From: a virus
Virus genome (UHGV): UHGV-1376965
Length of the DNA: 64,000 bases
Direction: 5' to 3' (one strand)
Shown here one piece after another: positions 4,409 through 5,076 of the stretch. Made by a program: the position numbers and the translations under genes. Position 1 is the stretch's first letter. The number at the start of each line of letters is the position of its first letter. The notes under the pieces were generated by a model. The model was not told the origin of the DNA. It saw only the letters and a list, made by a program, of their open reading frames with translations, and did no database searches.

Positions 4409-4585
4409 ATTAGTGTAATATCGCCTCAATGAATCGTGATTTATAGAGCGATTTAGCTGTTAGCCGCGACAGGCGCGGCGGCAAGTATGGCGGGGTAGTG
4501 ACTCCTTCCCCCTCATGACGCCGAGTTGCCAGGTTGACCATACGCCTAAGTGGCAACACCGAAGTGCGTTACGAGCTTCCAGTTT

Positions 4586-4611
4586 GCCCATCTTCGGGTG
4601 GGCGTTTTTTT
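4586..4611 (+). terminator. rho-independent terminator
   Basis: GC hairpin gccca-tcttcgggt-gggc followed by an 8-nt T run. Confidence 0.6.
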
Positions 4612-5076
4612 CAGGGTTTTCGTCATGGTTAGCGACTTTGCGGCGGTTTAGAAACTGACCATTAAAGTAAATGCAAACGATGATCTGATGATGGTAGCGG
4701 CCTAAGAAGCCAGACGCCACGGGGTATGAGTCGTCCCCCGTCAAAAAATCGACCGCAGAGTGTCCCCGTCTGTGTATTAGGGAACGGGGAGGCACAACAG
4801 GTAAGGGCGCTGGTGTGATTAACCAGATGAACGAGAAGGGGCCATCTGTTGGTCAGCGTCCTTTCCTGTTGCGTCTTCTTTTCAGCGTAACAGCGGTGCT
4901 TAACAGCACTTTGGGTACAGTTCCACGAATTTACGGGTATATCCCGTCATGCTGAAAGCGCTAATCACGCTGGAAGCCAGGGTTATGCATCCCCTGTTAC
5001 CGAATTGCAGCCAGGGCGCGGTGCGCCGAAAAGCATACGGAGGTGGAAGCCCTCGCCGGAGACGTACCCGGCAAGT

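Follow-up and report, generated by a model that had tools for sequence, protein, structure and literature searches.

The ban/tRNA leader of a P1-type phage-plasmid: a DicF-type module and a putative tmRNA-derived RNA predicted to dock on host tmRNA

Introduction

What does a P1-type phage-plasmid keep in the long untranslated stretch that separates dmt from its tRNA genes? We considered this question for positions 4409-5076 of the virus genome UHGV-1376965, from which 64,000 nucleotides, hereafter the window, were analysed. A sequence-only reading of this interval had suggested a single C1-controlled RNA of ~150-200 nt between an operator and a terminator, and had treated the other 460 bp as spacer with fragments of a repeat. 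We propose instead that the leader joins a module of the DicF small-RNA type to a second module derived from transfer-messenger RNA (tmRNA, encoded by ssrA in the host), which would dock on host tmRNA, block the host template and most likely supply a tag of its own, followed by a hairpin for RNase III. In our judgement, the balance tips modestly towards this reading as a whole. The tmRNA-like element, which had been overlooked as spacer, is the most interesting part of the interval.

The setting is that of the ban operon of phage P1. Window positions 4300-5300 are 97% identical to P1 and 98% identical to P7; the leader part reaches 99% identity with P7 and is identical in P1-like plasmids of E. 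coli and Salmonella. A window position equals the position in the P1 locus (NC_005856) plus 1299. At this locus, the GenBank records of P1 and P7 (NC_005856, AF503408) carry the operator Oban-ab (formerly Op72ab) and the promoters P1ban and P2ban, and the P1 record marks a 'dicF-like region' that corresponds to window 4516-4617; these items are what was already known here, and from the 'dicF-like region' to trnA the two records contain no annotation. Judged by homology, interval 4409-5076, located between dmt and trnA, belongs to a P1-type phage-plasmid and forms the untranslated leader of its C1-repressed ban/tRNA operon, which supports the earlier description of the interval as a non-coding leader. 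By the same comparisons, it reads as a mosaic of RNA modules that are also present in unrelated phages.

Results

A tmRNA-like element with a conserved tag frame

Positions 4612-4792 are conserved at 69-84% identity in 292 phage records (BLAST against 50,697), and a fixed-pattern scan of viral contigs yielded at least 120 additional loci. The carriers include Punavirus, Ackermannviridae (Vi01), Schitoviridae (ECBP1), Drexlerviridae (CS01) and many siphoviruses of Klebsiella, Salmonella and Aeromonas. The element is found in P1-like, T1-like, Vi01-like and N4-like enterobacterial phages, where it is almost always unannotated, and it is rare in bacteria, with 6 matches in species-representative genomes.

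What has been conserved? On the plus strand, positions 4673-4705 form a tag-like frame, GCA AAC GAT GAT CTG ATG ATG GTA GCG GCC TAA, which corresponds to ANDDLMMVAA followed by a stop; for comparison, the E. coli tmRNA tag is ANDENYALAA. The frame lacks a start codon and is preceded, 8 codons upstream, by an in-frame TAG, two reasons for which we rejected its translation in the conventional manner; the overlapping ATG frame specifies 5-9 amino acids and is of variable length. A frame of 10 codons is present in 127 of 127 copies, whose 31 coding sequences specify 16 peptides of the form AN[DE][DEN]..[LM].[AV]A. Among pairs that differ by one base, 13 of 22 are synonymous in the tag frame against an expectation of 24.5% (p ~6e-4), compared with 5/22 and 7/22 in the other frames; these pairs are non-independent and were drawn from the fixed-pattern copy set. 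Immediately before the GCA resume codon, U(-5) and A(-4) are present, and the corresponding positions of the host RNA, U85 and A86, are important in tmRNA.

The stop codon of the frame lies in the loop of a helix-5-like hairpin (4699-4711, plus strand), which was recognised by reading the sequence and from a table of stop contexts, and which is colinear with ssrA nt 82-127. Two H-type pseudoknots follow on the same strand. Pseudoknot A (4719-4753) is formed by stem 1 (4719-4724/4736-4741) and stem 2 (4730-4733/4750-4753), and pseudoknot B (4754-4790) by stem 1 (4754-4759/4769-4774) and stem 2 (4763-4768/4785-4790). Both stems of both pseudoknots covary, with compensatory changes in 4/4 stems; the stem variants were tabulated sequence by sequence, as MAFFT alignments put subfamilies out of register through indels. 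Searches with Rfam models returned matches of tmRNA_permuted, alpha_tmRNA and beta_tmRNA to the tag region of the window and of four other, unrelated phages. These matches stay below the gathering thresholds (tmRNA_permuted, 24.1 versus 47 bits; beta_tmRNA, 14.1 versus 84; 27-33 in the relatives). The beta_tmRNA alignment extends through the first downstream pseudoknot, so that pseudoknot A aligns with the pseudoknot that follows the tag in that model, and the consensus tag of the model also has 10 codons. With the moderate confidence that we attach to the whole reading, we suggest that the coding part of a tmRNA gave rise to this second module (4585 or 4614 to 4790).

Is the element itself a tmRNA? 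Because no tRNA-like domain accompanies it, it does not belong to tmRNA by the criterion that defines that class. ARAGORN made no tmRNA call in the window, in four phage loci or in 111 distinct contexts of the element; Rfam searches at E-value thresholds of 0.1-10 gave no tRNA-like domain for it; and inspection of its flanks by eye revealed no such domain, with its G3-U70 acceptor stem, T arm and 3' CCA. The complete 48-kb genome of CS01, which carries the element, contains no tRNA, tmRNA or tRNA-like match. Two candidates for an acceptor piece were rejected. First, the T-arm modules near the element in Vi01, ECBP1 and one further locus (L033 in our set) have U3-G70 and run on into other sequence. 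Second, the terminator hairpin upstream of the element, viewed as the acceptor stem of a permuted gene, has G2-U71, not G3-U70, and no T arm precedes it. In Vi01 (L006 1940-2120), we also observed a sequence, GGGTTCGACTCCCTAAAACGGCTCCACA, that lies 415 nt downstream of the tag element and is strongly similar to the T arm and acceptor strand at the tmRNA 3' end; it is followed by a long-stem module with different arms, CATCTTTGAGGGCA/TGCCCTCAAAGATG, and no matching 5' acceptor strand was found for it.

In 51 of the 111 contexts, tRNA genes occur at most 1.1 kb downstream of the element, all of the neighbouring tRNAs (113/113) being on the same strand, and in 68 of the 111 a repeat-module arm follows directly; the element usually heads an array of tRNAs or structured RNAs. 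T1-like phages equip it with its own promoter, which in Bas77 is TTGACA-17-TAGATT (10/12 match) and in CS01 TTGACT-17-TAAGCT. In Bas77, the promoter and the tag element are followed by several long-stem repeat modules, whose sequences are nearly identical to those at window 5300-5340.

A domain complementary to host tmRNA

Upstream of the frame, positions 4614-4653 (plus strand) constitute a domain antisense to nt 68-105 of E. coli ssrA over ~30 bp. This part of ssrA covers the 3' strand of pseudoknot 1 (PK1), the frame-setting region with U85/A86, the resume codon and tag codons 1-5. Within the domain, GGUUUUCGUC is complementary to ssrA nt 96-105, which are tag codons 3-5 (GAC GAA AAC), GUU to nt 93-95, GCGAC to nt 87-91, including G90 and C91 of the resume codon, UUUGCGG(C) to nt 74-81, which form the 3' strand of PK1, and UUUA to nt 68-71. 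No further segment antisense to ssrA was found within 4400-6200.

Could such a match have arisen by chance? The reverse complement of 4614-4653 aligned with ssrA nt 68-104 at a Smith-Waterman score of 33, compared with a mean of 16.4 (standard deviation 2.6, maximum 30) for shuffled sequences, and 0/2000 dinucleotide shuffles reached 33. In natural sequence, none of 13,270 windows of 400 nt (4.5 Mb, homologues masked) reached 27, except for one unmasked copy of the element. All of the 47 distinct variants of the 5' domain match the same ssrA site (nt 68-75 to 104-106), with scores of 26-42, and their scores against their own tag regions are at background level (median 15). Duplexes of the 5' domain with ssrA calculated by RNAduplex have energies of -43 to -49 kcal/mol (z -3 to -5.7); the known P2 helix was absent from the MFE fold calculated for E. 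coli tmRNA. When five reverse-complemented phage copies were aligned with ssrA, the same pairing blocks appeared, and the length variation among phages was confined to the segments between these blocks. The antisense complementarity is therefore beyond chance and is conserved among the variants, and from it we infer pairing in vivo.

Three further features of the phage RNA stand out. First, codons 3-5 are exactly where the phage tags depart from the host tag, and self-pairing is thereby avoided. Second, the resume codon of the phage lies 23 nt after the last paired base, and in the host the distance from nt 68 to G90 is 22 nt. Third, U(-5) and A(-4) are kept by the phages in the manner of U85 and A86 in the host. 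Elsewhere in the leader, GTGGAAGCCCTCGCC at 5038-5052 resembles, in the sense orientation, GTGGAAGCCCTGCC from the pseudoknot-3 region of ssrA (score 23 against a background of 14.5 +/- 2.4); this match could be a further tmRNA-derived remnant or could be due to chance.

How might an RNA with these properties act? We tentatively propose, while thinking it somewhat doubtful in this full form, that the element hijacks the template: a phage RNA devoid of a tRNA-like domain would join the one-piece tmRNA of the host in a chimeric two-piece tmRNA, which would add a tag chosen by the phage. A simpler action is also conceivable. The element might pair with host tmRNA and merely shut down or destabilise trans-translation, in which case the frame and the pseudoknots would be a scaffold that is not decoded or would mimic features bound by S1, SmpB or RNase R. 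The complementarity, which is the strongest and least model-dependent of our results, and the missing tRNA-like domain both agree with pure inhibition, and there is a precedent in the phage RNA of DS6A, which consists of the tRNA-like domain only and has been reported to inhibit tmRNA (PMC4131195, PMC11915505). Nevertheless, an inhibitor of this kind would not be expected to maintain a frame of always 10 codons from GCA with a tmRNA-like peptide pattern, an excess of synonymous changes in the tag frame only, the U(-5)/A(-4) context, and a distance from duplex to resume codon so close to that of the host, and we therefore consider pure inhibition unlikely.

Another possibility is that the element is a decaying relic, that is, the remnant of a phage two-piece tmRNA gene or a captured ssrA fragment that hitch-hikes at the heads of tRNA arrays, perhaps as a structured processing leader. 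Complete two-piece tmRNAs do occur in some phages (PMC9004378), ssrA fragments are found in prophages (PMC4131195), and the tRNA-like domain is missing, all of which would favour a relic. However, the element persists in at least five unrelated groups of phages with its frame length intact, with compensatory changes in four stems and, in T1-like phages, with promoters of its own; moreover, an antisense domain that matches the host and not the element itself would be unexpected in a decaying sequence. We regard decay as very improbable, and retain the reading of a tmRNA-derived RNA that docks on host tmRNA.

A DicF-family module under the C1 operator

The first module of the leader (4392-4611) begins at the operator. 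The 17-bp asymmetric C1 consensus ATTGCTCTAATAAATTT is present without mismatch at 4392-4408 on the plus strand, where it overlaps the dmt stop codon TAA (4399-4401); the perfect operator noted from the sequence alone is confirmed here as the annotated Oban-a (Op72a) of P1, which overlaps P1ban/P2ban and occupies the same place as the protein_bind features of P1 and P7. The minus strand carries an inverted second half-site, Oban-b (ATTACACTAATAAATTT), at 4403-4419 with 2 mismatches; it is annotated in both phages, and because of it the operator is bivalent. Transferred from the P1 annotation, P2ban has its -35 at 4376-4381 and its -10 at 4402-4407, and P1ban its -35 (TTGCTC) at 4393-4398 and its -10 (TAATAT) at 4416-4421, both on the plus strand, which would place the start of P1ban transcription near 4428; a simple promoter scan recovered neither of the two. 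In comparison with the ban control region of P1, the locus is the same, with a perfect Oban-a, 2 mismatches in Oban-b and equal spacing to dmt and trnA, and no difference was seen in operator or promoters. The operator is thus a P1-type C1 site, at which C1 binding and repression are predicted. Across the window, we counted 15 C1-operator-like 17-mers with at most 3 mismatches against 0.4 expected; they are dispersed (e.g., 1116, 20591, 37121, 52053), as expected for a P1-type genome.

Downstream of the promoters, three hairpins on the plus strand (4463-4557) form a platform of the DicF type: H1 at 4463-4479 (gccgcg/acagg/cgcggc), H2 at ~4489-4514 and H3 at 4525-4557, in whose stem GTTGCCA (4525-4531) pairs with TGGCAAC (4551-4557). 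H1 and the H3 stem are the GC hairpin and the second stem of the sequence-only reading, in which the positions of all noted sequence features were correct within 1-2 nt. When the leader was compared by BLAST with 5,426 complete E. coli genomes, 4,433 contained matches, most of them over 4464-4561 at ~82% identity, and in K-12-type strains the matching segment lies between ydfC and dicB, ending 24 nt upstream of dicF. The counterpart of the platform in Qin-type prophages is hence the stretch 24-120 nt upstream of dicF, with ~82% identity. In 16 non-redundant copies from viral contigs, the three hairpins are kept, with compensatory changes in H2 (GGGG/CCCC, CUGGG/CCCAG, CAGGUG/CACCUG) and H3 (UUGUCA/UGACAA, UUGCCA/UGGCAA). 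The sequence that separates H3 from the terminator is not constant: DicF, at least 6 other bodies and two P1-type bodies differ from one another there. Since the hairpins are kept while this sequence changes, we deduced a constant platform with an exchangeable body. The single-stranded segment at 4562-4584 (plus strand), which occupies the position of a 'seed', varies between P1-type variants and differs from DicF. In lambdoid prophages (L133-L243), the platform is likewise followed by at least 7 different bodies of small RNAs, with GGCGG...CCGCCCTTTTT as their common terminator, and there it looks like a constant processing domain bearing exchangeable seeds.

The module ends in an intrinsic terminator on the plus strand (4585-4611) with an 8-pair stem (4585-4604), a UUCG loop and seven T residues (4605-4611); it is the terminator reported previously at 4586-4611, with its stem starting one position earlier. 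The terminator scan by itself is not significant (3 found versus 1.5 expected), and the hairpins are given weight because they are conserved and covary. Phage D6 and ~90-kb plasmids retain the terminator hairpin even though they lack everything upstream of 4583 (4409-4582 is lost), and for this reason the hairpin is also structurally part of the downstream tmRNA-like module. It thus travels with the downstream module and not with the upstream one, and is also the 5' boundary helix of the former.

Which RNA would this module produce? In Qin, RNase III generates the 5' end of a 190-nt DicF species, and the DicF terminator stops some transcripts and is passed by others (PMC10448788). As the platform begins ~35 nt after the P1ban start and the module ends at the terminator, a primary RNA of ~184 nt is predicted, whose fold is modestly better than that of shuffled sequences (z = -1.6). 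A small RNA of ~184-198 nt, from the Pban start to the terminator and equivalent to the 190-nt DicF precursor, is plausible; the discrete RNA of ~150-200 nt postulated previously is plausible too, given the homology to the 5' part of that experimentally known precursor. The DicF body of 53 nt is not conserved here according to the alignment, and the Rfam DicF model found no match within 4400-5080 (E<=10) or 3500-8500 (E<=1). Against the ftsZ initiation region, RNAduplex gave z = +0.9 for the P1-type body in a comparison in which authentic DicF, the control, was itself not separated from shuffles (z = -1.3). We suggest that the first module is a DicF-family small-RNA gene directly under Oban/Pban, composed of the platform, a short variable segment and an intrinsic terminator, and we lean towards this assignment to the same modest degree as towards the reading of which it is a part.

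Long-stem modules and the tRNA genes

Directly after the tmRNA-like element lies the first of a series of long-stem modules, a hairpin of ~30 bp at 4795-4871 on the plus strand (complete module 4793-4875; minimum free energy (MFE) -37.9 kcal/mol, z = -4.4). Its 16-mer arm GCACAACAGGTAAGGG (4792-4807) recurs without change at 5231-5246 and with 94% identity at 5446-5461. The repeat that had been noted near 4790 is hence real, although it is a complete module and not a partial copy, and the claim that the repeat family spans both sides of the tRNA genes is borne out by the arm shared at 4792, 5231 and 5446. The second supposed echo of the repeat, a hairpin near 4925, exists at 4925-4939, but is only loosely similar to the ACGGG(G/T)TCATATCCC motif at 5675-5699 and 5954-5978.

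In K-12, such a long-stem module (arms at L003:881-893 and 939-951) is located just upstream of the DicF platform, and the calculated 5' end of the 190-nt DicF RNA made by RNase III (L003:946) falls within its 3' arm. For this reason, the repeat modules are probably processing stems for RNase III. Hairpin 4795-4871, a near-perfect double-stranded stem of at least 20 bp flanking a cargo, is probably a substrate of this enzyme.

Beyond this hairpin, 4880-4924 varies among 7 P1-type variants, and the following block (4925-5076, plus strand), which adjoins tRNA-Asn as its pre-tRNA 5' leader, is nearly invariant in them (fold z = -1.6). The genes for tRNA-Asn (5077-5152) and tRNA-Thr (5155-5230), called by ARAGORN and Rfam on the plus strand, belong to the same transcription unit. 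Four additional modules with long stems were observed at 5232-5318, 5446-5516, 5651-5750 and 5933-6010. In the first of them, a 21-bp stem with one bulged A bears a hairpin like a D arm, GCGA/CGUCGGAGA/UCGC, together with a canonical T arm, GAGGGTTCGAATCCCTA; we interpret this module, by analogy, as a tRNA-like unit without an anticodon arm, with an architecture like that of Y-RNA/YrlA, and neither ARAGORN nor Rfam made a call there. At 6005-6125, there is a match to the Salmonella small RNA STnc100 (37.8 bits, below the gathering threshold of 47), which is weaker in ECBP1 (L007 2702-2785). The opening motif of this STnc100-like element, GTGGTGAATGCGGCT, also occurs after the dicF terminator in K-12 (L003 1150-1180), and its 3' end is resembled by the 3' end of 4925-5076. 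The 3' arms of repeat modules (5499-5506, 5993-6000) contain TGCTCTTA or TGCTCTTT, which are also found in the 5' flank of the tag element at many loci. These motifs resemble the rrn boxA antitermination element, TGCTCTTTAACAA, and such arms could protect long untranslated arrays from Rho. Judging by the modules they share, the ydfC-dicF-dicB region of Qin, the ban leader/tRNA region of P1 and unannotated regions of T1-like phages are members of one mosaic family of arrays of non-coding RNAs, punctuated by probable RNase III sites.

We now return to the view that the interval holds one C1-controlled RNA between operator and terminator and is otherwise spacer. Its operator, promoters, hairpins and terminator are real, and the homology to the 190-nt DicF precursor speaks for it. 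Four observations argue against the remainder being spacer: 4614-4790 is conserved in 292 records of unrelated families and contains covarying pseudoknots; 4925-5076 hardly changes among P1-type variants; 4793-4875 is a complete module; and the terminator hairpin segregates with the downstream sequence. We consider this view improbable, and prefer a leader of two RNA modules and a processing hairpin.

Open reading frames over the interval

Does the interval encode protein on the other strand? The minus-strand open reading frame (ORF) at 4460-4795 (111 aa) had been described as the only one here; this was incorrect, as five others of 45-104 aa overlap the interval. It starts with GTG and lacks a Shine-Dalgarno sequence. 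In P1 (95 aa, in a different frame), P7 (76 aa) and D6, the ORF is found split or shifted, and because it is broken in these phages we do not regard it as coding. The records of JL22 and SJ46 annotate hypothetical proteins across the stretch, which would favour a gene; nonetheless, the missing Shine-Dalgarno sequence, the disrupted frame and its position antisense to covarying structures of the plus strand led us to reject the ORF as a gene, an alternative that we find scarcely credible. Minus-strand 'hypothetical protein' genes also lie over plus-strand RNA arrays elsewhere, as in Bas77_0055 to 0057 (L009 1488-2108), in JL22 and SJ46 over 4409-5076, and in plp/upl of P1 (L001 3898-4467), and several such annotations are probably wrong.

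Discussion

How might the leader work? In the model that we propose on computational grounds, the loss of C1 would allow Pban to fire. Most transcripts would stop at 4611 as a DicF-type RNA, the terminator acting as an attenuator, as in the dicBF operon, and transcripts that read through would extend over the anti-tmRNA/tag RNA and the RNase III hairpin into the tRNAs and the genes downstream. Cleavage of the third module (4795-4871) by RNase III would free the second module from the tRNA precursor, and RNase P would separate 4925-5076 from tRNA-Asn. The tag RNA would then pair with host tmRNA at the 3' strand of PK1, the resume codon and tag codons 1-5 and so mask the host template, and most likely it would offer a template of its own, with the result that rescued ribosomes would add AANDDLMMVAA in place of AANDENYALAA.

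Several points weigh against this model. The synonymous excess, as noted, comes from pairs that are not independent of each other. In P1-type genomes, no separate promoter was found for the tmRNA-like element and a strong terminator lies immediately upstream, and its expression there consequently depends on read-through; trnA RNA has been detected in P1vir infection (bioRxiv 10.64898/2025.12.28.696737). The target sequence covered was that of E. coli ssrA. The ftsZ comparison, whose DicF control failed, gave no signal usable for the target of a DicF-type seed. The complementarity between UUUGCGG and CCGCAAA could reflect homology of the PK1 helix instead of pairing in trans; the 10-bp block against tag codons 3-5 is not explicable by such homology. 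Pairing must also open part of PK1 in a highly structured RNA bound by SmpB, and a duplex beside the resume codon might block the loading of the ribosome and not redirect it.

If the model holds, what would follow? About 180 nt of the ban leader in the much-studied phage P1 appear to encode an undescribed RNA that is also present, without annotation, in ~290 sequenced phages, including therapy-relevant phages of Klebsiella, Salmonella and E. coli. Pairing with tmRNA, if true, would give the main ribosome-rescue system of bacteria its first natural antisense regulator and would explain how a tmRNA-like gene exists without a tRNA-like domain. If the tag is decoded, this would be the first case of a virus that supplies only the message half of tmRNA. 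If the template is indeed hijacked, the phage would decide the fate of proteins from stalled ribosomes by adding a tag such as AANDDLMMVAA, from which Y7 and LAA, features of the host degron, are missing. Such a role would tie together phage tRNA arrays, ribosome stalling (e.g., after attack by an anticodon nuclease) and proteolytic tagging.

Are there known systems of this kind? The phage tmRNAs known so far are either complete, as in mycobacteriophages, Bacillus phage G and the marine two-piece forms, or consist of the tRNA-like domain only, as in DS6A (PMC4131195, PMC11915505, PMC9004378). In the literature searched, whose coverage is incomplete, we came across no report of a phage RNA that consists of the tag part only or is directed against tmRNA, and an earlier description is possible. 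Like the element, the DS6A RNA is part of a tmRNA carried by a phage, and it has been suggested to interfere with trans-translation in the host (PMC4131195, PMC11915505); it keeps the tRNA-like domain and has no tag, whereas the element described here is the converse, a tag without the tRNA-like domain.

A close structural parallel is the coding piece of the two-piece (permuted) tmRNA of betaproteobacteria (RF01850, RF04321). The context of the resume codon is the same (AUAAAU followed by GCAAACGAU), the tag also has 10 codons and ends in a hydrophobic residue and two alanines, its stop codon also lies in a hairpin, and the following pseudoknot can be aligned. In contrast to that piece, the element scores 13-33 bits, below the gathering thresholds of 47 and 84, has no acceptor strand, T arm or partner acceptor piece (none was found), and bears a 5' domain antisense to the one-piece tmRNA of the host.

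For the first module, the counterpart is DicF. Both have the homologous three-hairpin upstream domain (~82%), both end in an intrinsic terminator within the operon that requires read-through, and both are embedded among long-stem modules. They differ in the body, which here is ~24 nt plus the terminator compared with 53 nt in DicF, and in the origin of the 5' end, which would come from initiation at Pban in this leader and comes from RNase III in DicF. Finally, AgvB and AsxR, anti-sRNAs (RNAs directed against small RNAs) from prophages of pathogenic E. coli, base-pair with an abundant regulatory RNA of the host. The RNA proposed here would differ from them in its target, which would be tmRNA, and in the fusion of its antisense domain to a replacement tag template.

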